The translations under genes and the position numbers were made by a program. Under the pieces are notes generated by a model. That model searched no databases, was not told where the DNA came from, and saw only the letters and a list, made by a program, of their open reading frames with translations. This document shows positions 4,769 to 24,684 of a stretch of 24,684 bases of DNA, piece by piece. The DNA is from an uncultured Bradymonadales bacterium (lineage in GTDB: Bacteria; Myxococcota_A; Bradymonadia; Bradymonadales; Bradymonadaceae), in contig CAYLMO010000010.1 in the NCBI GenBank assembly GCA_964384605.1, forward strand, positions 1 to 24,684, in the 5' to 3' direction. Each line of letters opens with the position of its first letter. Position 1 is the stretch's first letter.

Positions 4769-4981
4769 CGTTCACCTCGAGGGCTGGACCGGAGGGCTTC
4801 GATATATCACGGGCCGAGCGGCGCGGAAACGAGTCGCGAGGATGGAGTCGTCATGCGTGTGGGAGCCGAGAGTACATTTGTGGACAGAGAGTATACGGCA
4901 ATGTCGCCGCGACACTTTTTCATTCTCGAAAGGTGGCGTAGCGTGAGCGTCAAACATCTGACTGTTACAACGAGGATAGAG

Positions 4982-7900
4982 ATGAACGTGCGTCACGTCG
5001 CATGGCTCGCGCTCTTTGGTTTGGTAGCTACGAGCTGCTCCGAAGAGTTGTCTGGGCCTCAGCCAGCGATCCCCGATCCCGTTGCCGGACAGGCATTGCC
5101 GGTCGATCCGGGACTCATCTGCAACGTCCAGCACCCCGAAGAGGGGACGCCGATTTCGGTCACCGGTGAGGCGCTCGCGCCCGTCGGGTTCGATATCCCG
5201 GGCGACCCGAAGGTGTCGCTGCCCGACATCATGCTCGCTCGGACGAGCGGTCTGACCGGAGGCGAAGCAGCCGAGGCGAGCGTCGAGTTTGGCGGAGAGC
5301 CAGGCGACGCGAATCACAGCTTGCTGACCTGGACCTCGCAACAGGCGATGGAGTTCCGCGTGACCGACGCGCTGGCGATCGAAGCCGGCGTGTACGATTT
5401 GACCGTGACGAACGCCGACGGCTCAGCCGCAACTTCCGCGGCCGCGCTCGCCGTCGTCGACCGCCCCGTGGTCACCTCGGCCTCGCCAGGCCTCGTCTGT
5501 GTGGCACAGGAAGCGCGCGACATCGTCATCGAAGGTACGGACTTCCTGCGCATCGGCGATTCGCTCGCCGCCGTGAACATCGGCGACAGCACGTTCGAGC
5601 CCGCGCTCGATGGCTGCACCGGTATCGCACACCCCGCGATCGACGCTGAAACCTGCACCACCGCGACGATCAACGTGCCGCAAGACGGCCTCGCCGAAGG
5701 CACGTACGACGTCACGATTCAGAACCCCGAGACGGCCGCATGCACCAGCGTTGCAGCCGATGACGCAATCACGCTGCGCGTCGTCGGGCCGCCTCGCATC
5801 GAGGCCGCCGACCCGCCCGCGATCTGCTCGGAATCGGCGTCGATGATGGAGACGATCACCTTCACGGGTGCGAACTTCATCAACGCCGACGGTCAGAACT
5901 TCGTGGTCACCGTGAACGGTCAGGAAGTCACGCCCGACTCGGTCGATGGATGCGAAGCGGTCGAGGGAGCTGGCTTCGAAGCTGAGATCTGCACCTCGTT
6001 CACCGTCACGGTCGACCTCACCGGTCAGGCTATCGGCGGCATCGAAGTTACGGTCACCAACCCCGACGTCGTCGGCTGCAATACCTCCACCACGGAGGTC
6101 TTCGAGATCGTCGGGCCGCCTACCGTCACTGGCGTACAGCCGTCCGAAATCTGCTCGGACCGCGCTGAAACCGTCACGCTCACCGGCACCGGCTTCGGCC
6201 AGAACGCGACCGTCATGTTCGGCAGCGAGATGGCCGACATGGTCGAGTACGTCAGCTCCACCGAGCTCACGGTCACCTTCACCGATGGCCTTCCTGCGGG
6301 CACCTACGACATCACCGTCGACAACGGCGGCGGATGTGTAGCGACCCTCATGGCCGGCATCATCGTGAACCCCACGCCAATCACGTTCTTTGTCGACCCA
6401 CGCGTGGTCTACAACGGCATCACGATCGAGGTGACCATCTTCACCTCGGGTCTCGACGCCATGGCGCAGAGTGTCGACCTCATCGACGATATGGGGAACG
6501 TCACGAACATCTCGGCGTTCAACTCGCCGACGCGTCCGAACCGAATCCTCGCGACGATCCCAGCGGGCCTCGACCCGGGCGAATACGAAGTGCAGGTGAC
6601 GTCGTCGGACGGCTGTGAATCGCTCATCAACGGGCGTCTCACCATCACCGACAACCTCACGCTCAACCTCGCGAGCATTACGCCGAGCTTCGTCTCGCCG
6701 ACGGTCGATACCGCCGTGACGATGGAAGCGGCCGACCCGAACAGCTTCGTGAGTACGCCGCGCGCGTACCTCAACCCGAACCCTGCAGGCGCAGGTGTGA
6801 CGGCGAGCCCGATTCGTGCGGTGGTTCAGGCCGATGGCGACACGCTCACGGGCGTGATTCCGGGTGGCCTCACTCCGGGCAGCTACGACCTCATCATCGT
6901 CAACCCAACCGGCGAAGTGGGACTGCTCGAGAGCGCGCTCACCGTGACGCCGAACGAGCCGCCGGTCATCACCTCGGTGACGCCGGCGACCCTCGCGAAC
7001 AACACCGACTATCCGGTGACGATCGCGGGTGAGAACTTCGACGCTGCGGGCGTCACCGTGGAGCTCACCTGCGAGGCGCCGGACGGCACGCAGACCGACT
7101 ACTCGGCGACGGTTCAGGGTGTCACCGCGGACAGCGCGGATGCGCTGCTGCCCACGAGCCAGCTCTCCAAAGGGACAGTGTGCGTGGTCAAGATCACCAA
7201 CGATGCCGAAGGTTCGTCCTTCGTGTTCTCGGCGATCTCCATCACGAACTCGTCGTTCAACCTCGAGCCCTGGCAGGCGACGACTGCGATGAACACGCCT
7301 CGACGTGCACTCGCGCTCGAAGCCGGTCGCCCGACGCAGACGAGCCGCGCGCTCTACGCGGTCGGTGGCGACGACGGAACCGCGGCGAACACCTACGACA
7401 CCATCGAGTACTCGCCGGTCAGCATCTTCGGCGACCTCGGCGCATGGGTCGACCAGTCCTACACACTTCCGGCTCCGCGAGCCTTCGCGGGTAAGACACG
7501 CATCGGGCGATTCCTCTACTTGATTGGCGGCACCGACGGGACCGCTGCGCAAGACACCGCGTGGCGCGCGCAGATTCTCGATCCGCTCGATACCCCGAGC
7601 GTGGTCGACGTCGATGCGACCCTCGGAGACGGCACCAATGGCGTGGGCGAAGGCGTGTGGATCTACCGCGTCGCCGCCGTCTACCCCATGACCGACGCCT
7701 CGAACCCTGGCGGCGAGAGCCTTCCGGGAGACCCACAGGTCATCGAGCTGCCACAGGTCGACGAAGGCATCGTGCTCACGATCAAGTGGGACGCTGACCC
7801 TCGCGCTTCGGCCTACCGAGTCTACCGCTCGCCTGCGGCCGACGACTCGATCGACAACCTCCAGCTGCTCGCTGAGGTTGCCGCGCCCGATACGCAGTAC

Positions 7901-14468: not shown

Positions 14469-16370
14469 TCAATCGTCGAGCGGATCGGTCCCGAGGATTC
14501 GGCGCAATCGACCGCGCGTATCTTCGTTCGAGTCTTTCTGCGCCTGGTCGAGCGAGTAGGACTTCGAGAGTACCTGCACGGTGCCCCGAGGCGAGGCCGC
14601 GAATTCCGCGCGCAGCTTCTCGAGTTCCATCAGGAACGAACGCGGTTGATCCGAAACCGCGGCGGCGCGCTCGAGCACTTCCTGGGCTGCGAGGAAATTG
14701 CCGCGACGCCGGAACTGCCCTGACAGTTCGAGCACCCGATCGACCTCGTCGTCCGAGAACGCCAGGCTCGGCGAGCTCAGGTTCGAGCTCGCTTCGCTCA
14801 AGTCGCGCCGCTCGGTCTTCACCGCGTCGTCGATGCGCACGACCCCGTGGTCAGCGAGCGAGAACACGGCCTCCTCGATATCGAACGGTAGTCCCGACGC
14901 TCGCGTACGGAGCTCCGAAATCGAGATTGGCTGTTCAGCGAGCGACAGCACGAAGTTTTGCCCCTGCGTCCAATCTCGCCCCGGCAAAGGGCCGGTTCGC
15001 GCGATGGTCGCTCCGTTTCCGATCGACCGCCGCACACCGTGCTTGTCGAGGAAGTACTCCAGCGCCGCGTGGCACGTGGGGCTGAGCTCCACGCCGAATC
15101 CCGTCGGATGTTGGTGGCAGTGCGATACGACTCGCCCCTCGAGCTTCAACTCGGCGTCCGCCGGTTCGTACACCACCCGTATCGCAACGATGTCGTTCTG
15201 GTCCGGAAAATCGCCGTCGGCGGTGACGAACAACCCTCGCGCGATCAGGTTTCGGCGATACTCTCGCCGCATCCGTTCGGCGGTCCCGAAGACCATTCGC
15301 CAGCATGGCACAGAGTCGATCGGGCGTTCGATGACGAGCGACGGAGACCGCGAGACTCTCGAAGTGACGGGCGCGGTTTTGCTCGACCGGAAGCTCTCTT
15401 CGTACGCCACGGAGTCGAGCGAATCGCCCACGGGCACGAATGTCGTTTCGGCAGCCGCATCGCGGAAGGCGGCGACGAACGACTCCACGTCGGGCCAGCG
15501 GTTCTTGCGCGAAACTTCGATCGCCCGCATGACCGTCGCGCTGGTGGCCTCGTTTACTTCGGAATTCAGTTCGTACAGCGGTCGCGGTGTGCGGCGTGCG
15601 CGGACCTCCGAATAGGCGTCGGCCCAACCTTCCGTGACCCAGGGCACGCGGCCGCTCAACATCTCGTAGACCACACATCCGAGCGCGAACACGTCCGCCC
15701 GCGGGTCGATGTCTTCACCGTCTGCGTGCTCCGGCGACATGTAGCGCGGAGTACCAAAGACGGACCCAGATTCGACGGTATTGTTGATGATCGAGGCCGT
15801 GCCGAAGTCGAGCACCTTCCAAACATGCCGATTGCCCGGCCGGCGCGCGTGCATGATGTTGGCCGGCTTCAAGTCGAGGTGCACAATCCCGAGCGCATGC
15901 ACCGAAGAGAGCGCGCTTCCTACCGCCACCAGACAGTCGAGCGTCTCGCGCAGCGACAACATTCTTCGGCGAACGAGGATATCGGTGAGTCGATCACCTT
16001 CGAGCAGCTCCATCGTCAGGAAGTACCCGTGCGCGGCGCAATGGCCGAAGTCGGTCACGAACACGATGTTGTCGTGACCGATCAGGCTCGTCGCCTTGGC
16101 CTCCTCCTGGAATCTGCGAATGAACTTCGGGTCGTGCGCAATCTCCGGGTGCAGAATCTTCAGCGCGAAGCGATGTCCCAGGTGCACGTGCCGCACCTCG
16201 TAAACCCTCCCGAACCCGCCTCGACCAATCTCGCCGGTGACCCGGTAGCGATTGTCGATCACCTGACCGATCGCCGATTGGAACCTCGGGATGGCGTGCT
16301 CGAGCTCGTCGAGCGCACGTTCGATCTCCGAATCGCTCGCGGCGAGGTTTTCGTTCATGCCGTCGTTCAT
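14469..16370 (-). CDS. serine/threonine protein kinase (Hanks-type) with a long C-terminal regulatory region
   Basis: Kinase motifs GEIGRGGFGRVY, ALKIL, HLDLKPANI, DFG, GTPRYMSPE. The ORF track starts at a TTG (16382). The first ATG is 16368-16370 (MNDGM...), with an alternative ATG at 16358. No strong SD is present. The C-terminal ~300 aa have an RREYRR...ADGDF stretch only weakly PilZ-like. Confidence 0.8.
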   Translation of the reverse strand: MNDGMNENLAASDSEIERALDELEHAIPRFQSAIGQVIDNRYRVTGEIGRGGFGRVYEVRHVHLGHRFALKILHPEIAHDPKFIRRFQEEAKATSLIGHDNIVFVTDFGHCAAHGYFLTMELLEGDRLTDILVRRRMLSLRETLDCLVAVGSALSSVHALGIVHLDLKPANIMHARRPGNRHVWKVLDFGTASIINNTVESGSVFGTPRYMSPEHADGEDIDPRADVFALGCVVYEMLSGRVPWVTEGWADAYSEVRARRTPRPLYELNSEVNEATSATVMRAIEVSRKNRWPDVESFVAAFRDAAAETTFVPVGDSLDSVAYEESFRSSKTAPVTSRVSRSPSLVIERPIDSVPCWRMVFGTAERMRREYRRNLIARGLFVTADGDFPDQNDIVAIRVVYEPADAELKLEGRVVSHCHQHPTGFGVELSPTCHAALEYFLDKHGVRRSIGNGATIARTGPLPGRDWTQGQNFVLSLAEQPISISELRTRASGLPFDIEEAVFSLADHGVVRIDDAVKTERRDLSEASSNLSSPSLAFSDDEVDRVLELSGQFRRRGNFLAAQEVLERAAAVSDQPRSFLMELEKLRAEFAASPRGTVQVLSKSYSLDQAQKDSNEDTRGRLRRILGTDPLDD

Positions 16371-16426
16371 GATAGGTGACAAAGTGAATCGGAGGGCCGG
16401 TGCACGGCCTCCAAATGGAGTTTCTT

Positions 16427-17422
16427 ATGACCGAACTCGTCCAGACACTCACGCAATGGTTGGAGATCGATTCGACCTCGGGTGGTGAGGCTGCCTTCCT
16501 CGAGGCGCTCCAGGCGCACTTCGAGGGTTTGGGCTACCGGTGCGAACGCGACGAGGTCGCGCCCAATCGTTGGAACTTGTTGTGCACGACGTCGGCAACG
16601 CCGCGACTCGTCTACTCGACGCACGTCGACACGGTCCCGCCGTTTCTGGGCCCGCGAATCGAGGGCGACACGATCTACGGACGCGGGGCGTGCGACACGA
16701 AGGGTGGCATCGTCGCGATGATGGCGGCCGCTGAGAAACTTCGTAGCGAAGGGCACCAAGAGGTCGGGTTCCTGTTCGTCGTCGGCGAAGAGGTCGACCA
16801 CTGCGGCGCCAAGCACGCCGGCACCAAATCGATCGAAGGCGTCGAACGAATCATCCTGTGCGAGCCGACTCGAAATCGCGTCGTGGCCGCCCAGAAAGGG
16901 ATGATCAAGTTCGAAGCCCGCGCCAAAGGCATCGCCGGCCACTCCGCCTACCCCGACCGCGGCGAATCGGCAGTCCACAAGCTTCTCGACGCGATCGAAC
17001 GTTGGCGAGCCGAACCGTGGCCTACGCACGAACTTCTCGGACCGACCACCATCAACGTCGGAGTCATCGAAGGTGGAGTTGCGGCGAACGTGTTTGCGCC
17101 CGAAGCAAGCGCGCAGATCTTGGTCCGCGCGGTGTCTGCCGTCGAGCCGATGGTTGCGCGCTTCAGGGAGCTTGCCCCCGAGGTCGAGATCGACGTTCCC
17201 GCCATGAACGACCCGGTCTTCTTCGACCCGCCCGCAGACGTAGAGACGGCGACCGTCGCCTTCAACACCGACGCCACCTACTTGGGAGGTCTCGCCCCCA
17301 TCTGGTTGGTCGGTCCCGGAGATATCGAGGTCGCCCACTCGGTCAACGAACACATCACCGTTCAAGACCTCGAGGCGGGAGTCGAGCTTTACGCTCAACT
17401 TGGTCGTGTCGCGCTCGGCTGA
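16427..17422 (+). CDS. M20 family metallopeptidase (ArgE/DapE-type acetylornithine deacetylase / succinyl-DAP desuccinylase-like)
   Basis: GGAG 16417-16420 then ATG 16427 (MTELVQTL). HVDTVP metal-binding motif, GRGACDTKGG, GEEVDHCGA, and a dimerisation-domain-like middle region. Divergent from the kinase gene. Confidence 0.75.
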   Translation: MTELVQTLTQWLEIDSTSGGEAAFLEALQAHFEGLGYRCERDEVAPNRWNLLCTTSATPRLVYSTHVDTVPPFLGPRIEGDTIYGRGACDTKGGIVAMMAAAEKLRSEGHQEVGFLFVVGEEVDHCGAKHAGTKSIEGVERIILCEPTRNRVVAAQKGMIKFEARAKGIAGHSAYPDRGESAVHKLLDAIERWRAEPWPTHELLGPTTINVGVIEGGVAANVFAPEASAQILVRAVSAVEPMVARFRELAPEVEIDVPAMNDPVFFDPPADVETATVAFNTDATYLGGLAPIWLVGPGDIEVAHSVNEHITVQDLEAGVELYAQLGRVALG

Positions 17423-17433
17423 AATCCCCCGCA

Positions 17434-17652
17434 CTACTCCTCCCTCGAGAGCGGCTTCTCTTGGTGGGTCAGCATCGCGGCCGCAAGCCGCTTCGCGTCC
17501 ACCTCGTACTCCCCAGCTTCGACCGCATCCCGCAGCTCGTCGCAGCTCAGCTCGGCCTCGGAGTTCTCGACGATCTCCGACAGCTCCGCTAGCTCCGACG
17601 CTGATACCGTCGTCGCAGCACTGTTTTTCGATTTCGAAGAGTCCCGGCTCAC
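17434..17652 (-). CDS. FlgM-family anti-sigma factor-like small protein (72 aa)
   Basis: GTG start 17650-17652 preceded by GAGG (spacing 6). Ser/Thr-rich disordered N-terminus. C-terminus ELRDAVEAGEYEVDAKRLAAAML matches the conserved FlgM C-terminal helix pattern (..I..G.Y.VD..KIA..ML). Confidence 0.5.
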   Translation of the reverse strand: MSRDSSKSKNSAATTVSASELAELSEIVENSEAELSCDELRDAVEAGEYEVDAKRLAAAMLTHQEKPLSREE

Positions 17653-17682
17653 GCGAACCTCATGTCGAAGCGTTCACGCGAG

Positions 17683-17710
17683 ACATCGGCACGAATTCGC
17701 TCGGCCTTAA
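17683..17710 (-). promoter_or_regulatory. sigma-28/FliA-like promoter candidate (TTAAGGCC-N12-GCCGATGT) upstream of the FlgM-like gene
   Basis: Minus-strand reading gives TTAAGGCC gagcgaattcgt GCCGATGT, close to the class-3 flagellar promoter consensus TAAAGTTT-N11-GCCGATAA. It lies ~30 nt upstream of the GTG start. Confidence 0.3.
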
Positions 17711-17737
17711 GCTCTTGAAGATGGAGAGGTGCCCGAC

Positions 17738-18097
17738 TTAGGCGGTGTAGACCACGCCCTGGGCGTCGAGCCAGTCCTGCGCCTTGGCGCGCACCGACTC
17801 CGAAAAGTAGGCCGCGAAATCGTCGCTCAGATCGGCGCCACGAACCTGGGCGCAAAGCACCTCGATCGTTTCGCCCTCGGCTCGAATCCCATGAGCCTCC
17901 AAAAACTCTCTCAGGAGTTCCTCGCGGCGGATTGGGGCTTTGGGAAGCTCCACAAAGTCGCGAGCCGGTCGATGCTCCGGAATGCCCTCCACCACCATCG
18001 CTCTCGGAAGGTCGAGATAATGGGGGCCGGACAACTCGGCATCTTGCTCGAAGTACTCCAACAATTCGCGAACCAGCGGATTTCGGGGGCGACTCAT
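17738..18097 (-). CDS. hypothetical protein (~119 aa)
   Basis: ATG 18095-18097 (MSRPRNPLVRELLEYFEQD...) preceded by purine-rich AGAGAGAAG. The ORF track's longer N-terminal extension (from 18187) is Arg-rich and runs into a low-GC intergenic region. Confidence 0.4.
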   Translation of the reverse strand: MSRPRNPLVRELLEYFEQDAELSGPHYLDLPRAMVVEGIPEHRPARDFVELPKAPIRREELLREFLEAHGIRAEGETIEVLCAQVRGADLSDDFAAYFSESVRAKAQDWLDAQGVVYTA

Positions 18098-18282
18098 ACT
18101 ACTTCTCTCTAAACGACGAGCGGACGCACTCGTAAAGATGCGTCTAGTATCGAAAGGTTGCGCGCCAATCCGGAATACCTGCAGCACAAGTATTTCAGCG
18201 CACTTCGTTCGATGTTAGGCAACCCGCAAGAATTCCATTATCCTCGCGTCGACGCCGACGGATTCGTCACAAGGGCTACGGC

Positions 18283-19827
18283 ATGCGCGAATCACAGCCG
18301 ACACCCAAGCTCGCTCGCTGGAGCGGCGAGAGCTTCGGGGAACTAGTGCTTGGCGGGGAGCTTGGATCGGGTCCGAATGGATCCACCTACTCAACAACGT
18401 CTCCTGAAGGCGATGGGAGGCCCTATGTCGTCAAGATCGTGGAGCGCCACACGGTTGACGAAGACAATCGGATGCGCCGCTACCGCACGGATGTCGACAT
18501 CCTTCGAGAGGCCGACATCACCGGAATCCTAGAGCCCGGCGCCTTCCGAACCCTCGACAATTCGCACCTCGCCGCCATCATGGAGCGAACGGACCTGCTC
18601 AGCCTGCGGGCGTTCCGAGGTAAGTTGCCACCGCATCGCTTCATCGATGTGTTGCGGCGAATCGCGATCGTCGTCGGCGACGGCCACAACGTCGGCTGCT
18701 TCCATGGACACCTGCACGAATCGAACATCTTCATCGACCCGGTCGAAGCCCCTCCAACGATCGAAGTCAGTGGCTTTGCGCTACATCACTTGATCAACGA
18801 CGAAGTCCTGTCGCCCGGTCAGCTACTCCACGACGACATCTTCGCCCTCGGACTCATCGCGTTCCGCGAAGTCTCGGGGCGGGAGTACCGCGGCCCCGAC
18901 GACCTCCAGCACCTCATCCGCGAATCGGGCAACTTCCCCGTCCGCTTCTGCCAGGCCGTCGAACGTTGGCTCGACCCGAACCCGGCCAAACGACCGCAGA
19001 AGATGCACCAGGTCATCGGCTTGCTCGAGTACGCGCTCGCCTCCACCGACCCCGCGCAGACGTTCCCGGTGGGCGTTGCCAAAGGCCCCGCGCCGGCGGC
19101 CGCGATCATACGACCGCCCAAGACTGGCATCTCCGAGGTCTCCGAAGCGCTCGAAGACAAATCGCCCGACAACACACAGAAGGTCCAAAGCTGGCGAAGC
19201 TGCGGCGGCAAGATGCTCTGGCTCGACGACCAGGGCGTGCTGCGCCGCCGCGATTCGAAAGGAAACGACACGATCGTCGACGCCGGTGGACTCGAGGTGA
19301 ACGCCTTCGCGATTTCGCACGACGCGATCGCGTTCGTGGTCCCCGGAGGTGAGGTTCACCTCATCGAAGATTCAGGAATCCGGCGAGTCTCCCAGCTCGG
19401 GCGCGACGCGCTCGCCGTCGCTCCGTCTGCCCGGCTTCGGCGAATCGTTGCCGCGACCGTGGACGGTCGGGTCTGGTTCAAGCCCGCAGACCAGCCGCGG
19501 CCACTTCCAGTCGGTTTTCTCAATCCCGACGACGGCATCGATCTCATGTTGGTCGGCGAGCGACTCCTCGTTCGCCACGGCGAAACCGCATGGCTCGCCG
19601 ACCCGGAAAGCCCAGACGACATCGACATCGTCTTCGAGAACACCACCCGAATCGACGGCGGGTTCGACCCTCGAACATTCGTCGTCTGGTCAGGCCGCCG
19701 CTGGTCGCTCTACGACATCGACGGCAACCTCCTCGAAACCGGCCGCACCGCTCAAGGGCCCCGTCCGGGACGTATGGACGGTCCGACCTACTCGACCTAT
19801 CGAGACCTTTCGAGCGTCAGTAGCTAG
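18283..19827 (+). CDS. pseudokinase: degenerate Hanks-type kinase domain fused to a C-terminal beta-propeller-like repeat region
   Basis: AAGGG then ATG 18283. Gly-loop-like GELGSGPNGSTY and VVKIV lysine motif are retained. The catalytic loop is HGHLHESNIFID (HRD Asp replaced) and the DFG position reads SGF. C-terminal repeats look like beta-propeller blades (VDGRVWFKP, VVWSGRRWSLYDIDGNLL). Confidence 0.65.
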   Translation: MRESQPTPKLARWSGESFGELVLGGELGSGPNGSTYSTTSPEGDGRPYVVKIVERHTVDEDNRMRRYRTDVDILREADITGILEPGAFRTLDNSHLAAIMERTDLLSLRAFRGKLPPHRFIDVLRRIAIVVGDGHNVGCFHGHLHESNIFIDPVEAPPTIEVSGFALHHLINDEVLSPGQLLHDDIFALGLIAFREVSGREYRGPDDLQHLIRESGNFPVRFCQAVERWLDPNPAKRPQKMHQVIGLLEYALASTDPAQTFPVGVAKGPAPAAAIIRPPKTGISEVSEALEDKSPDNTQKVQSWRSCGGKMLWLDDQGVLRRRDSKGNDTIVDAGGLEVNAFAISHDAIAFVVPGGEVHLIEDSGIRRVSQLGRDALAVAPSARLRRIVAATVDGRVWFKPADQPRPLPVGFLNPDDGIDLMLVGERLLVRHGETAWLADPESPDDIDIVFENTTRIDGGFDPRTFVVWSGRRWSLYDIDGNLLETGRTAQGPRPGRMDGPTYSTYRDLSSVSS

Positions 19828-19914
19828 GCGGCCTCGAGCAATTTCGACATCAATTAGATCCAAACTCGAGACAGGTCGTTAGAATGATCGACAACGAACC
19901 TGCGGAGCCTTCCC

Positions 19915-20805
19915 ATGTCTGAATCGAATCGAGCCAACGTCGCCCTCTCCATCACCATCGCCGCGGTAGCTCTCCTCGCGGGCTACGTCGTGTTTGCCGC
20001 GATGGGTGACAAATCGACCACCTCAACGAAACCGCCCATCGTCGACTCGCAGAACAAGGTCCTCGATGTCGTCTTCGTCATCGACGCGACCGCGTCCATG
20101 TCCGACGAGATCGAGCAGGTGAAGGCGGAGGTCGTGTCTGTCGCCGACCAGCTCTCGGGCGAGAATCCGGGCGCGAAGATCCGCTTCGGACTCGTGCTCT
20201 ACAAAGACACCACCGACGACTTCGTGACTCGAGTCACGCCGCTCAGCTTCGACACCCAAAAGGTTCGCGGCCTGCTCGAACAGATTACGGTGAGCGGCGG
20301 TGGCGATTACCCTGAGCATGTCGGTGCGGGCCTGCACGAAGCCATCGCGTTCGATTGGGCACCCGATGCCGAACGCGTCATCTACCTCGTCGGCGACGCA
20401 CCCAGCCAAGACCACGGCGACGGCAAGACCGTGTCGACCGCGCTCCAGCTGGCCAAATCGAACGGCATCGTCGTCCGCACCCTGGGCTGCAGTGGTATCG
20501 AGCGTGATGGCGCCGCGGGTCGAAACGAGTTCCAGATGATCGCGCAGATGACCGGTGGCACGTACCGCGACCTCACCTATCACGCGGTCGTGGTCGGCGA
20601 TGACGGCCGAAAGCGTTCGGTCATCTACGAGGGCGGCGAAGCGTACGAGGCCGACCGGGTGCTCGACGCTGAAGAATGGTCGGCCGGTAGTGGCGCGCTT
20701 CGCGAGAAAGGGATGGTCAAGCCGGCCGCTGCGCCGACGCGGGCCAAGGCCGACCGCGCCGAGAAGAAGAGCAACGTCATCGAAGTCATCAAGGGCGACT
20801 TCTAA
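19915..20805 (+). CDS. membrane-anchored von Willebrand factor type A (vWA) domain protein
   Basis: GGAG 19904-19907 then ATG 19915. N-terminal TM helix LSITIAAVALLAGYVVFAAM. MIDAS motif VVFVIDATASMSD (DxTxS) with downstream ..GGGDYPE.. and LVGDAP, typical of vWA folds. Confidence 0.8.
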   Translation: MSESNRANVALSITIAAVALLAGYVVFAAMGDKSTTSTKPPIVDSQNKVLDVVFVIDATASMSDEIEQVKAEVVSVADQLSGENPGAKIRFGLVLYKDTTDDFVTRVTPLSFDTQKVRGLLEQITVSGGGDYPEHVGAGLHEAIAFDWAPDAERVIYLVGDAPSQDHGDGKTVSTALQLAKSNGIVVRTLGCSGIERDGAAGRNEFQMIAQMTGGTYRDLTYHAVVVGDDGRKRSVIYEGGEAYEADRVLDAEEWSAGSGALREKGMVKPAAAPTRAKADRAEKKSNVIEVIKGDF

Positions 20806-20823
20806 GCCACCGGTTCGAGGCGG

Positions 20824-22740
20824 TCAGCCGCGTTTCATCTGCCGTTGCAGGTCGATCACGGTGACGCCGCCCGAGCCGTCATGGCGCACGGCCATCAGCT
20901 GATTCTGGCTGCTGAAACCGAGCGCGTGCACTCCCGAGGGCGGCTCATTTCCACGCATGAACACGTTCGGTTGCACTGCCGATTCGATTCGGACCTCTTT
21001 GTCGGTCAAGAGTGCCACAAGGTAGCCGTCGCTCGAGAAAGCGACGGCTCGAACGTCTGGATCTTTCACGGTTCGAACGGCGGTCCGGGGCGTTGCGAAG
21101 TCGTAGACCGAGCAGCTCTTCCCTCGCCGCGCCATCGCGAATCGGGACCCATGCGCGTCGACCGCAAACGTCACGATCGGGCCGTCACCCGACTCGACCG
21201 CGAACCGACTCCAGTCACGATTGTCATCGCCGGTCCACAGGTATGCGCGTCCGTTGACGGTTCCCGCGACGGCCACGTTGCCCGCGTCCGACACCGCGAG
21301 CACGGTGATCGCGGAGCGCCGGACGTCTTCGTAGACGAGCGTTGGTTCCTGGTCGCGCTCGACTCGAAAGATTCGGCCGCCAGCCGTACCGATCAGAACG
21401 AACCTGTCGCAGACGGCCAGGGCGGTGACTTCGCTTGGGAGGTCCAGTTTGCGCTTGGATTTCACGCCGCTGGACAGTTCGACCAAGGCGAGTTGATGAC
21501 GTCCATCGATGTACGCGACCCACTCTTCGGAGACCGCGGTGATGAGTGAGCCTTCGAGGTGCTGCGTCACGTGCACGCGGCTCGAGTCGTCACGGTGCAA
21601 TCGCGGCGCCGGCGGCTGCTCGCCCGTTTCGGTGAAGGCGCGACCATGCAGCGTGCCGCCAGTATCTTCACCGGGGGCCGAATCCTCCATGACGACGCTC
21701 GAAACGTGCGACAGCGTCGCCTCCGAGAGGCTGTCGAGGAGCGAGATCACGTCTGACAACTGGTCCGGACGGTCTTCCGGCCGCTTCTCGAGAAGGTTCT
21801 TCAGCAAGTTCTCGAGCTCATCCGGGAACGACTCCCCGGTGACTTCGCGCAGCGACGGGGCCGGTGTCGTAACGTGATCGTCGAGGATGCGCAGCACGTT
21901 GTCGTGCACGAACGGCGGGCGGCCCGTCAGCATCTGGAAGAGTACGGCTCCAACGCTGTAGATGTCGCTGCGTTGGTCGACTTCCTTCCCCTGGGCCTGT
22001 TCGGGAGACGCGTAGAGTGGTGTGCCGATGAAGCCTCGGGTCATCTTGACGGCGCCGCGCGCCGACACGATTCCGAAGTCCAATACGTGCACGAAGTCAT
22101 CGCCGGCTGGCAGCTCCTCGACGATGATGTTGTCGGGCTTGATGTCCCGGTGCACGAGCCCTGCGCGGTGCGCTTCGAACACACCGTTCGCGATCTGCCG
22201 CGTGATCTGAATCGTTCGCCGAATAGGCAGTCGGCCGTACTGTTCCACCAGCTCGTCGAGCCGAGTGCCCTCGATGAAGTCCATGACGAACGCCATCTCG
22301 CCGGACGGCAACGAGATCACGTCGTAGAACGACACCACGTGCGGGTTACGCATGCTGCTGAGTGCCTGAACCTCACGTTCCACGCGGGCTTTCGTCTGCT
22401 CACGACGCGCGGGATCAGCGTCCATGTGGACGACCTTCATCGCGAACGAACGCGGAATCGCCATCGAATCGGCGCGATACACGGCTGAGAAAGACCCATC
22501 GCCAACGTGCCGTGTCAGTACGTAGCGATTCGAAATCGTCTTTCCGAGCCAGCGATCGGCAAAGTCCTCCAGCGGAAACCAACCGTCGGCCGGGCGCTTC
22601 TCGCCGCAGTAGAAGCAGTCGTCGTCCTCGGCGAAGGCAACCGCGGTGCAGATACCGCACGCGAAGCTGATCTCGCCGCGAATCTGTTCGCGGCGAGCCT
22701 GCTCACGCTTGTGGCGCGATGCCCGTTCCGATGTGGACAT
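20824..22740 (-). CDS. serine/threonine protein kinase with an N-terminal C4 zinc-ribbon and a C-terminal WD40-like repeat region
   Basis: ATG 22738-22740 (MSTSE..) preceded by AGGGA. An in-frame ATG at 22755 has no SD. CGICTAVAFAEDDDCFYCG zinc ribbon. Kinase motifs AMKVV, HRDIKPDNI, DFG, GTPLYASPE. C-terminal ~300 aa have WD40-like repeats (VAGTVNGRAYLWT, VAFSSDGYLVALL). Confidence 0.85.
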   Translation of the reverse strand: MSTSERASRHKREQARREQIRGEISFACGICTAVAFAEDDDCFYCGEKRPADGWFPLEDFADRWLGKTISNRYVLTRHVGDGSFSAVYRADSMAIPRSFAMKVVHMDADPARREQTKARVEREVQALSSMRNPHVVSFYDVISLPSGEMAFVMDFIEGTRLDELVEQYGRLPIRRTIQITRQIANGVFEAHRAGLVHRDIKPDNIIVEELPAGDDFVHVLDFGIVSARGAVKMTRGFIGTPLYASPEQAQGKEVDQRSDIYSVGAVLFQMLTGRPPFVHDNVLRILDDHVTTPAPSLREVTGESFPDELENLLKNLLEKRPEDRPDQLSDVISLLDSLSEATLSHVSSVVMEDSAPGEDTGGTLHGRAFTETGEQPPAPRLHRDDSSRVHVTQHLEGSLITAVSEEWVAYIDGRHQLALVELSSGVKSKRKLDLPSEVTALAVCDRFVLIGTAGGRIFRVERDQEPTLVYEDVRRSAITVLAVSDAGNVAVAGTVNGRAYLWTGDDNRDWSRFAVESGDGPIVTFAVDAHGSRFAMARRGKSCSVYDFATPRTAVRTVKDPDVRAVAFSSDGYLVALLTDKEVRIESAVQPNVFMRGNEPPSGVHALGFSSQNQLMAVRHDGSGGVTVIDLQRQMKRG

Positions 22741-22867
22741 TAGGGTCCCTGACATTCATGGAGTCAATTCTTTGACGGCAATGTACAGCGGATTTGACCA
22801 GCCGAGCAACGCCGCGTGTGCCATTTTGTATACGAATGGAATACGGCCCAACCTCGCTGGAACGCAC

Positions 22868-22917: not shown

Positions 22918-23991
22918 TCAGGTGTCTCGCAGAAGCCGAAGAGCACCTTCGGTGGCCACGACTTTGACCTCGCCCACGGAGCTGGCGAGCTCTTTCAGAG
23001 TCTCGAGCTCTTTGAGGCGCATGAGCGTCGGGTTCGACTCGAGCATCTTGGCCGTGTTGGCCATGCTTCGGGTCGAAGCCGTCTCTTCGCGACGCGTGAT
23101 GACGTTGGCCTCAGCTTCTTTCTGAGCCTCGATCACCCGGTTCATGAGGGCCTTCATGTCGCCCGGAAGGACCACGTCTTTGAGGTCCACCGTTCGGACC
23201 GAAAGGCCCCATTCGCCCACGACTTTCCGAACTTCCTCGGTCGTCGTGTTCGAACCCTGGTTGCGCCGCTCGAGGAGCGACTCGACCGTCTCACCGGCCA
23301 CCCATCGGCGGACAGCGAGCTGGACTTCCGAGTAGAGGCCGTTCTCGTACGAGTCGACCGTCGACACGGCTGTCTCCGGGTTCGTGACTCGGTATCGCAC
23401 CAGCACGTTCACACGCACCGACACTTTGTCCGAGGTCATGACCTCTTGGCCGACGACCTGGAGCTCACGTTCACGCATGTCGACGACGTCCACTCGTACC
23501 GAGCGCTCGTACTCCGAGACCATGTATCGACCCGGTTGGAGCTCGCGCACCAGCTCGCCGTTCACCCAGAGGAGGCCTCGAAGGTGCGGACCGATCAGGT
23601 GCGAGTAGCCGTACTTCCGGTCGAGCATGCGCCAGAACGGCTTCGGCAGGCTCAGAACGTCTTCATTGAGGTCGAAGAGTTCGGCGGTCACGCGCTTGCG
23701 CACCTGCCACAGGACCCATCGGCCAACGCCGAGGACCTCGTGAGCGACACCGTCGACTCGGACACAAGCGACGCGACCCTCAGGGACCTCGAGCAGGACG
23801 CCCTCCGAAGCGGGGAGCATCTCTTCGAGTTCTGGCGTGAGTTTCGTCGAGGCGCACGAGACGTCGAACGAGATCGTTTCGTAGTCCGCGAAGATCGACC
23901 AAAGCGTGTGATGGCCGGGGCCGAGCCACTTGTAGGGCTGGCCGTTTCGCAGAACGAGAACGCGTTCGGTTCGTTTGATTTCGAGATACAT
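22918..23991 (-). CDS. SPFH/Band 7 (slipin/stomatin-like) family protein with an N-terminal extension
   Basis: GGAGGTGA then ATG 23989-23991. Core VDMRERELQVVGQEVMTSDKVSVRVNVLVRYRV..AV..V.. matches the SPFH beta-sheet region. C-terminal coiled-coil/Ala-rich region VIEAQKEAEANVITRREETA is typical of slipins. Confidence 0.75.
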   Translation of the reverse strand: MYLEIKRTERVLVLRNGQPYKWLGPGHHTLWSIFADYETISFDVSCASTKLTPELEEMLPASEGVLLEVPEGRVACVRVDGVAHEVLGVGRWVLWQVRKRVTAELFDLNEDVLSLPKPFWRMLDRKYGYSHLIGPHLRGLLWVNGELVRELQPGRYMVSEYERSVRVDVVDMRERELQVVGQEVMTSDKVSVRVNVLVRYRVTNPETAVSTVDSYENGLYSEVQLAVRRWVAGETVESLLERRNQGSNTTTEEVRKVVGEWGLSVRTVDLKDVVLPGDMKALMNRVIEAQKEAEANVITRREETASTRSMANTAKMLESNPTLMRLKELETLKELASSVGEVKVVATEGALRLLRDT

Positions 23992-24311
23992 GATTCACCT
24001 CCTCGTCGCGCCACGCGACGGGTGCTGCATTGAAAAAAACTCGGAACCGGCCAACCCACCTTGTCAGCGAGATCTGCGGGGGCGCTGCGGCCGGGAGACG
24101 TGTCGACTTCTCACGTCACTCGAAGGCACAACCGCGCGTGTGCTCCCCCCAAGGCGCACACGGCACGGCGCAATGCCCACAGGGCATCTCTCGCCTGGAC
24201 TCGCCTCGGCACCGTTGGTGCTTTGGTTCGTCCGGGTGGGCCAACCGGCCCCTCTTAGGTCACCGTAATGAGTGGTGGTCTCATCCGATTTTGTTCGGAC
24301 GAAGTTTACCG

Positions 24312-24354
24312 ACGGATTGACAGTCCGTTGCCTTTACCATTTGGCTACATTCCC
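24312..24354 (-). tRNA. 5' two-thirds of tRNA-Asp(GTC): acceptor GGGAATG, U8, D-arm, anticodon stem ACGGA / loop CUGUCAA / UCCGU. It lies 6 nt downstream of the 3' fragment, so the gene order is permuted.
   Basis: Minus strand gggaatg-ta-gcc-aaatggtaaa-ggc-a-acgga-ctgtcaa-tccgt. Perfect 5-bp anticodon stem, U33, GUC, A37. The acceptor 5' strand GGGAATG pairs with CATTTCC of the upstream 3' fragment (6 Watson-Crick pairs plus G3.U70). No T-arm follows it. Confidence 0.55.
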
Positions 24355-24360
24355 AATGCT

Positions 24361-24388
24361 TGGTGGAAATGATGGGATTCGAACCCAC
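24361..24388 (-). tRNA. 3' third of a tRNA (T-stem GTGGG, T-loop TTCGAAT, T-stem CCCAT, acceptor 3' strand CATTTCC, discriminator A, CCA), not preceded by an anticodon arm
   Basis: Plus-strand tggtggaaatgatgggattcgaacccac is the reverse complement of a canonical T-arm-acceptor-CCA. The 68 nt upstream on the minus strand contain GGAAGTG (24450-24456), which could pair with the acceptor. No anticodon or D stem was found in any 5-bp/7-nt-loop register. Confidence 0.55.
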
Positions 24389-24640
24389 ATTGGTGACGGC
24401 CGAGGCGATACGTGGGACACACGCTCCAGACTAGACGGGGATTGTGCGCCACTTCCTTACCGGCCGACTTCTCCTATCGCGAGACCCGTGCCAACTTTTG
24501 CGAGGGTGTCGCAAGTTGTTGAAAATAATGGGTTTTGCTGGCTGTCGGGTGGCGTGTCTCACGACGCTTCTGTATCGGATGAGATAGCTTCTATCGGCCG
24601 CGATAAGAATCCTTTTCGCCATTCAGGCACCAAACGCCGA

Positions 24641-24684
24641 ACGAGCATCCAGCAACCAGTAACGAGCAACCAGTAACGAGCAAC
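24641..24684. repeat. 14-bp tandem repeat (cagtaacgagcaac) with 2 perfect copies and a degenerate leading copy, cut off by the window end
   Basis: 24657-24670 and 24671-24684 are identical. 24641-24656 is a diverged copy (aacgagcatccagcaac). The unit length is not a multiple of 3. Confidence 0.6.

Follow-up and report, generated by a model that had tools for sequence, protein, structure and literature searches.

What does a bacterial locus encode when the pieces of a tRNA lie in it in the wrong order? The question is raised by a stretch of 24,684 nucleotides (GenBank assembly GCA_964384605.1, contig CAYLMO010000010.1, positions 1 to 24,684; hereafter the window) from an uncultured Bradymonadales bacterium, a member of a deep-branching Myxococcota lineage. 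Near the end of the window, on the minus strand, a preliminary description recognized a tRNA-Asp(GTC) whose 3' third stands upstream of its 5' two-thirds, and proposed either a circularly permuted tRNA gene, which if functional would be the first in bacteria, or the mark of a rearrangement. Our analysis indicates that the locus probably encodes a stand-alone Y-RNA-like (YrlA-related) tRNA mimic, a small non-coding RNA and not a tRNA. The earlier reading was right that the element is real, permuted and worth a second look; its classification as a tRNA gene, and as something unprecedented, did not hold.

Permuted order and integrity of the junction

The permuted order is real. From 24388 to 24312 of the minus strand, the elements follow one another as T-arm, 3' acceptor strand, ACCA, six-nucleotide linker, 5' acceptor strand, D-arm and anticodon-like arm, exactly as described before (Table 1). 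The two pieces also fit each other as claimed, with seven of seven acceptor pairs including G3.U70. All 20 pairs of the core helices (T, 5 base pairs [bp]; acceptor, 7 bp; D, 3 bp; anticodon-like, 5 bp) are standard, one being G.U, and the positions used for tertiary contacts in tRNA (U8, the GG of the D-loop, UUCGAAU and the U before the T-stem) are all kept in the window copy. Reading of the sequence 3' of the anticodon-like arm found no T-arm, and a contiguous cloverleaf with the arms in the order acceptor, D, anticodon, T was not found. ARAGORN returned 0 genes, neither a tRNA nor a tmRNA being called anywhere in the window, and the Rfam tRNA model barely exceeded its threshold (30.4 vs. 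29 bits), with a match to the 5' two-thirds that contains no T-arm.

A mis-join, one of the explanations first offered, is not supported, since three assemblies share the junction. Two further assemblies (L001 and L002) were reached via the adjacent SPFH protein, and the junction is identical base for base in the window and in both of them, and the assemblies come from different runs. L001 is an independent strain-level copy with 19 differences from the window in 11.8 kb, none of them in the spacer that holds the RNA. A scar, left by a tandem duplication or by the junction of a tRNA-targeting element, is suggested by an order in which one tRNA seems to end and a second to begin, and the Y-RNA literature proposes an origin from dimeric tRNA transcripts (10.1101/312249). 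However, each tRNA half occurs once in the window or L001 (0 expected by chance), no second copy of either half and no other att-like repeat was found in these two sequences, and no integrase, transposase or other mobile-element gene was present among the 14 products scanned (nine window open reading frames and five L001 genes). The lack of a second half copy and of a mobile-element gene nearby argues that the locus is not an integration scar. A perfectly paired acceptor helix would also be rare at the junction of two different tRNAs (background mode, 3-4 of seven pairs), and dozens of unrelated genomes share the architecture, with covariation, as described below. A scar or a mis-join is highly improbable.

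A family of RNAs with the same architecture

The architecture of the window RNA recurs in a wide range of bacteria. The genome scan used one genome per species, and its counts are lower bounds among the matches listed: at least 72 of the 120 had a capped acceptor helix with seven of seven pairs, against a background mode of 3-4. These genome matches span Nostocales, Myxococcota, Planctomycetota, Verrucomicrobiota, one gammaproteobacterium and others. On viral contigs, most of the matches listed for the loose junction pattern were tandem tRNA genes of the ordinary kind, and acceptor complementarity had to be imposed as a filter before the pattern became informative; a perfect acceptor helix was present in 20 of the 115 distinct junctions with this type of D-arm (background mode, 3). 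About a dozen viral loci have the layout of the family. Two junctions with seven of seven pairs (L040 and L054) were true back-to-back tRNA genes and were set aside as false positives.

The shared structure is supported by covariation. The window sequence was left out of the covariance model (R1), for which 20 RNAs encoded in other genomes were used. In the RNAalifold consensus of 20 sequences, 28 of 36 pairs had compensatory changes. When 75 members were aligned by fitting to the model, which favors pairing, 96.2% of cells paired compared with 36-48% when the partners were slid, 33 of the 36 pairs changed on both sides, and none of 500 shuffles reached the observed covariation score; the independent RNAalifold result agrees.

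In the consensus, the 5' and 3' ends pair in a closing stem of two parts, with 9 bp in helix 1 and 5-7 bp in helix 2; the stem is followed by a single-stranded UACACGCA motif, the T-arm, the 7-bp acceptor helix with a variable cap, UA and a 3-bp D-stem. The 3' part of the consensus consists of a 5-bp hairpin with a 7-nucleotide loop and a 3' strand ending in GGCUUnnCCACUCGGGCG. The motifs UACACGCA and CCACUCGG are carried by the closing stem of the family. The GG/CC pairs of the T-arm are invariant in all 75 members and the D-arm sequence UAGCCAAAUGGUAAAGGC is nearly unchanged in most. Compensatory changes affect all seven pairs of the acceptor helix, in which 99% of cells pair across the 75 members, and all five pairs of the anticodon-like stem covary.

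The window RNA is a member of this family. R1 matched it over the entire model at 72.2 bits with an E value of 4.1e-17, well outside what chance would give, and the next best match in the window scored 12 bits. Elsewhere, scores are 120-150 bits for primary copies and 55-75 bits for Nostocales RNAs and secondary copies in tandem; ordinary tRNA genes side by side do not exceed about 53 bits. The T-arm of the window copy aligns with that of R1 and with those of the Rfam tmRNA_permuted, beta_tmRNA and YrlA models. The T, acceptor and anticodon-like stems have sequences that are unique among the 75 members, yet they are perfectly paired, which argues for a maintained structure rather than decay.

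The family also bears on the proposed tRNA-Asp identity, which rests on three loop bases only. A 7-nucleotide Y-U-NNN-R-A loop is present in 42 of the 75 members with a triplet that varies freely (AUU, CUA, CUU, CAU, GUA and others), and the other 33 have no such loop. NCCA opens the cap in 17 of the 75, compared with about 1.6% expected by chance, so that it is enriched but not conserved; many caps are 3-6 nucleotides long and lack CCA (GCAA, UUU, GUUG, UUUGAU and others). G3.U70 occurs in 11 of the 75 members. Because the triplet is free, and CCA and G3.U70 are not conserved, no tRNA-Asp identity can be assigned. A73 and G3.U70 are, moreover, features of the alanine type, not of the Asp type.

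A functional circularly permuted tRNA-Asp(GUC), with a transcript that is circularized and then re-opened as in Cyanidioschyzon merolae and Thermofilum pendens, would account for the four well-formed arms, the GUC in a canonical 7-nucleotide loop and the encoded CCA. The window RNA has in common with the genes of those organisms a 3' part that precedes the 5' part and an acceptor stem that starts out loop-closed. However, those genes give decoding tRNAs with functional anticodons via a circular intermediate (splicing endonuclease and ligase), whereas the triplets of the homologues of the window RNA are of every kind, most homologue caps are without CCA, and the linkage seen for the family is with a Ro60-like protein, not with translation genes. 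In addition, the splicing endonuclease and ligase route is not known in bacteria (10.1101/312249). A tRNA gene of this kind is very improbable here, and the idea of a first bacterial example lapses with it, the architecture being already known as YrlA-type.

A divergent two-piece (permuted) tmRNA gene is the least probable explanation that was considered. The permuted ssrA order (T-arm, 3' acceptor strand with CCA, intervening segment, 5' acceptor strand) corresponds to the local order at this locus, two-piece tmRNAs of alpha- and beta-proteobacteria and cyanobacteria (RF04321, RF01849-51) share with the window copy G3.U70 and A73, and partial matches were obtained with the Rfam models tmRNA_permuted (25.1 bits) and beta_tmRNA (22.4 bits). 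However, both matches comprise only the T-arm and acceptor hairpin, with nothing beyond that unit, and are far under the gathering thresholds of 47 and 84 bits. ARAGORN, which searches for permuted tmRNAs, found none; no plausible tag frame ending in Ala-Ala was found on reading the downstream sequence; a true D-arm and an anticodon-like hairpin, which tmRNAs lack, are present; and G3.U70 is a minority feature of the family. The tmRNA reading was rejected because a tag frame, pseudoknots and ARAGORN support were all missing.

Relation to YrlA-type Y RNAs and a Ro60-like partner

The closest known counterpart of the family is YrlA, an RNA that resembles a circularly permuted tRNA with a closed acceptor loop and that is encoded beside Ro60 on the same strand (PMC4201824; 10.1101/312249). 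Chen et al. recognized YrlA RNAs by their T, AS (capped acceptor), D and V arms, by GNCGAAN0-1G in the Ro60-binding stem, and by a position on the same strand as a Ro60 gene and no more than 4 kb from it; their survey covered only genomes annotated with a TROVE protein (PMC4201824). The family has in common with YrlA the order of T-arm, loop-closed acceptor stem, UA and D-arm, the conserved T- and D-loop nucleotides, the pyrimidine before the T-stem, and 5' and 3' ends that pair around the tRNA-like module. At the level of the family, the location upstream of a Ro60-type gene on the same strand, the tandem paralogues and the occurrence in phages are shared as well. The alignment of the window RNA to the Rfam YrlA model (RF02553) covers the T-arm, the capped acceptor and the D-arm in the same order. 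Tandem partner copies reached 43.4 bits (full model) and 38.9 bits with this model, values that are significant but under the gathering threshold, and RNAs of the hairpin-bearing type scored 16-26 bits. The exact GNCGAAN0-1G motif was present in 10 of the 75 members, with variants in most others.

The family differs from YrlA in having a separate 5-bp anticodon-like hairpin with a 7-nucleotide loop and a closing stem that exits at the variable-region position instead of replacing the anticodon stem. The D-stem of this branch has 3 bp (GCC/GGC), the partner protein is not recognized by Pfam TROVE, and the window copy has neither a partner gene nor a GNCGAA motif. The family is best described as a YrlA-related branch with a separate anticodon-like hairpin and a divergent Ro60-type partner. 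No later description of a hairpin-bearing branch was found in the literature searched.

The family is linked to a vWA protein. A conserved protein of 477-642 amino acids, always encoded on the strand of the RNA and usually 0-2 kb downstream, was found at 37 of the 72 listed loci. Its vWA domain is C-terminal, its N-terminal region carries no annotation, and its database name is "VWA domain-containing protein". The predicted fold of the partner aligns with Ro60/Rsr structures over 370-412 residues. On the other side, searches with Pfam TROVE, NCBIfam and PDB sequences did not recognize the protein, and Foldseek gave vWA matches only for a model with a predicted template modeling score (pTM) of 0.47. 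From these models, the Ro60 assignment of the partner family is supported but not proven.

This vWA family, which comprises the P0121 protein (L251 5570-7345, minus strand) and its homologues P0122-P0240, is highly conserved, with about 70% identity across Myxococcota, and probably constitutes an unannotated branch of Ro60. A second conserved open reading frame of about 240 amino acids lies between the RNA and the Ro60-like gene in L248 (1621-2340, plus strand) and occupies the same position in about 24 Nostocales loci; it had no Pfam, NCBIfam or PHROGs match.

These features suggest how the RNA may work. The T-arm, the loop-closed 7-bp acceptor-like helix, the D-arm and the anticodon-like hairpin would fold into a tRNA-shaped module, from which the 5' and 3' parts of the RNA would exit at the variable-region position and pair as a closing stem. 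In most relatives, the closing stem contains an internal loop of the Ro60-binding type, and the gene lies just upstream of that of the Ro60-like protein, with its predicted helical region and vWA domain. By analogy with characterized Y RNAs, the stem would bind the Ro60-like protein and the tRNA-shaped end would recruit a tRNA-recognizing partner. The window copy is presumed to be expressed, with putative ends and a putative closing stem, and it may bind protein and have a function analogous to that of Ro60-associated RNAs; its Ro60-like partner would then be encoded elsewhere in the genome.

The window copy as a divergent paralogue

The window copy is a lone, divergent paralogue with an intact tRNA-like core and a stem module that differs from the consensus. 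Several observations weigh against assigning it a Y-RNA-like role. In the alignment to R1, several positions of its closing stem do not pair and the UACACGCA region is deleted, UACACGCA being absent at the aligned position. The exact GNCGAAN0-1G motif occurs nowhere in 24030-24684 of the minus strand, and the relaxed form GNCGA is absent at the aligned position. Searches of the window and L001 for a relative of the partner protein (tblastn and hidden Markov model) gave generic vWA similarity only, and the 8 kb upstream and 24 kb downstream of the RNA contain no Ro60-like gene. The Rfam YrlA model scored 16.2 bits on the window copy (E 2.6, model positions 30-81), compared with a gathering threshold of 69 bits. 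A scan detected no sigma-70 promoter or intrinsic terminator. Synteny revealed no orthologous locus, homologues of the adjacent SPFH protein being at most about 51% identical and no close relative being present in the collections searched. Finally, the closing helix and the extra hairpin of the window copy (Table 1) come from energy minimization alone and lack comparative support.

The sequence CCACCACUC precedes the 3' strand of the predicted closing stem of the window copy and resembles the CCACUC motif of the family; CCACCACUC and the GUCACC/GGUGAC helix exist in the window, but in a register that differs from the family closing stem. Minimum free energy (MFE) folds of the 490-nucleotide spacer varied with the sub-window chosen, and the present account is therefore confined to the core and the single closing helix that recurred; the GUCACC-GGUGAC and CCUC-GAGG pairing recurred in the folds of several sub-windows. 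R1 forced part of the extra hairpin into the family closing stem with several non-pairs. Similarity of the whole spacer to all fetched loci, as tested with blastn and nhmmer, was confined to the tRNA-like core. A metagenome scan with the anticodon-like stem of the window copy recovered two loci from one organism, both typical members with flanks no closer to those of the window RNA.

The main alternative is a decaying orphan, a former member that has lost its protein partner and Ro60-binding stem and is non-functional, with a tRNA-like core not yet degraded. The partner gene not found nearby, the poorly aligned closing stem without the family motifs, the undetected promoter and terminator, and a score about half that of primary copies would all be expected of such a remnant. 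However, the core has kept every one of its 20 pairs in spite of stem sequences found only in the window copy, and all tRNA tertiary-contact positions are retained. Secondary, tandem paralogues at other Myxococcota loci also score 60-75 bits, and partnerless copies are common in Myxococcota whose genomes encode the protein. The partner gene was missing in 20 listed loci that have at least 3 kb of downstream sequence; such orphan copies include those of Archangium and Myxococcus, which lie beside an M1 aminopeptidase gene while the partner protein is encoded elsewhere in the genome. The orphan status of the window copy is not exceptional, and decay is an unlikely explanation of the locus.

Possible processing by RNase P

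A further possibility, which overlaps with the Y-RNA-like reading, concerns the fate of the transcript. RNase P may cut 5' of G24354 and the linker AGCAUU may be trimmed back to CCA, leaving a paired two-piece tRNA-like molecule that would resemble the YrlA of M. smegmatis or two-piece tmRNAs. According to Chen et al., a 7-bp acceptor is the determinant of RNase P cleavage; the YrlA of M. smegmatis, the only tested member with 7 bp, was cut by M1 RNA in vitro and was cleaved and given CCA in vivo (PMC4201824). The window copy shares the 7-bp acceptor-like helix with M. smegmatis YrlA and differs from it in that CCA is already encoded after A73.

Processing of this kind is consistent with the length of the acceptor helix (PMC4201824), with ACCA encoded at exactly the right place, with the enrichment of NCCA at the start of family caps, and with the alignment of the Rfam permuted-tmRNA and beta-tmRNA models to a unit of T-arm, acceptor, CCA and linker. 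On the other hand, most caps have no CCA and some are only 3-4 nucleotides long, so cleavage cannot be the general mode of the family, and the CCA enrichment could be inherited from tRNA ancestors. A two-piece product is a tentative proposal for the window copy, plausible but less likely than not to apply.

A more extended proposal holds jointly that the window copy is a chargeable two-piece tRNA mimic and that the branch is a distinct Y-RNA system tied to tRNA-array mobile elements. After opening of the 7-bp acceptor helix by RNase P and removal of the six-base linker as far as the encoded CCA, the freed end would display the alanine identity elements (G3.U70, A73), and the molecule would still have a complete anticodon arm. 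We regard this combination as speculative and improbable. If it were true, the window copy would be a bacterial split tRNA-like molecule made from a permuted gene without any splicing endonuclease, and the hairpin-bearing branch with its unannotated Ro60-like partner, often within arrays of 20-28 tRNA genes, would be an undescribed Y-RNA system.

Phage, tandem and tRNA-array copies

Copies of the family occur in several other contexts. The same capped-acceptor mimic was seen in IMG/VR contigs, where it typically borders a cluster of phage tRNA genes (Table 1). ARAGORN and Rfam at the gathering threshold did not call the mimic in the five viral contigs checked (L073, L035, L029, L034, and L121). 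In L054, a RAGATH-19 RNA (4875-5018) and a group I intron (1571-1815) adjoin the phage tRNA cluster; they are unrelated to the family.

Tandem copies, two to five per locus, were found in L240 (5615-6315), L351 (4873-5564), L269 (5606-6463) and L247 (6465-6774). The first copy has the anticodon-like hairpin; later copies often have none and are closer to canonical YrlA. Several copies of the mimic are interspersed among the tRNA genes of arrays, 20-28 genes in size, in L269 (1650-7980), L354 (3000-12500), L263, L266 and L256, and a Ro60-like vWA gene is also present in the arrays of L263 and L256. Such arrays have the appearance of tRNA-array islands or modules of the prophage type, with a Y-RNA system of their own.

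Genomic setting and coordinates

The RNA lies in an intergenic spacer of about 690 nucleotides in which the window ends. The SPFH/Band-7 gene (22918-23991, minus strand) is downstream of the RNA, and a divergent ABC-transporter gene, seen in L001, starts just past the end of the window. The region had been taken for the boundary of an island free of open reading frames; it is instead the spacer between these two genes. The low G+C content cited in favor of an island is borne out only mildly (0.58 in the spacer vs. 0.634 elsewhere in the window); the tRNA-like core has 0.49, as expected for a tRNA-type sequence. The repeats also taken as a sign of an island form a 14-nucleotide tandem array just before the ABC-transporter start codon. 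The array is a perfect tandem repeat of GTTGCTCGTTACTG in 2.4 copies with a degenerate further unit (24651-24684), and it continues in L001 (7553-7597). The GTTGCTCGTTACTG repeat may have a regulatory or leader role.

Between the tRNA-like RNA and the SPFH gene is a strongly structured, G+C-rich (0.65) stretch of about 225 nucleotides (24033-24258, minus strand), which ends in seven U (24039-24033) about 40 nucleotides before the SPFH start codon and had no Rfam match. This stretch may belong to the transcript of the tRNA-like RNA as its 3' part, form an RNA of its own or serve as the SPFH leader. The other neighbors of the RNA are genes for Ser/Thr kinases, a vWA-only protein of 296 amino acids on the other strand, and ABC transporters. 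The Ser/Thr protein kinase genes form a cluster (14469-22755) in which one is fused to a WD40 propeller and which also includes the gene for a kinase-like protein of 514 amino acids and that for the vWA-only protein. Such kinase clusters are typical of Myxococcota, and a link to the RNA is not evident.

Table 1. Positions of the tRNA-like RNA and its parts in the window, and of related mimics on viral contigs
Feature	Sequence	Position	Strand	Remarks
T-arm	GUGGG/UUCGAAU/CCCAU	24372..24388	(-)	Read from the sequence; U24389 before the T-stem corresponds to tRNA position Y48
Acceptor-like helix, 7 bp	CAUUUCC (24371-24365)/GGGAAUG (24354-24348)	24348..24371	(-)	7/7 pairs, including G3.U70
Acceptor cap, 10 nucleotides	ACCAAGCAUU	24364-24355	(-)	A73 and CCA (24364-24361), then linker AGCAUU (24360-24355)
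U8-A9 linker (24347-24346) and D-arm (24345-24330)	UA; GCC/AAAUGGUAAA/GGC	24330..24347	(-)	Read from the sequence
Anticodon-like hairpin	ACGGA/CUGUCAA/UCCGU	24312..24328	(-)	Loop Y32 U33 NNN R37 A38; GUC in the anticodon position
Candidate non-coding RNA as delimited by the model (full-length R1 match)		24276..24423	(-)	cmsearch 72.2 bits, E 4.1e-17, model positions 1-153 of 153
Predicted extra hairpin, 9 bp (2 G.U)	UUCGUCCGA/ACAAAA/UCGGAUGAG	24280..24303	(-)	Includes GUCCGAA; specific to the window copy; thermodynamic folding only
Predicted closing stem, 5' strand	CCUC (24405-24402), GUCACC (24397-24392)	24392..24405	(-)	MFE prediction
Predicted closing stem, 3' strand	GGUGAC (24264-24259), GAGG (24254-24251)	24251..24264	(-)	Prediction
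Capped-acceptor mimics on viral contigs		L073 6717-6770; L035 4658-4705; L029 4033-4088; L034 1307-1369; L150 8248-8294; L121; L131; L146; L232

Significance of the family

The presence of this class of RNA in bacteria and phages means that neither archaeal-type processing nor a rearrangement has to be invoked for a bacterial "permuted tRNA gene". A sizeable branch of the class escapes current tools: ARAGORN calls none of it, the Rfam YrlA model scores it below threshold, and the partner is named only "VWA domain-containing". The 7-bp acceptor helix, the encoded CCA and G3.U70 of the window copy provide a testable case for the opening of a tRNA mimic by RNase P. The branch is widespread in Myxococcota, Nostocales, Planctomycetota and phages, where it is often found in tandem or in large tRNA arrays, and because it is widespread and often multi-copy, systems of the Y-RNA/Ro60 type may be considerably more common than has been catalogued.

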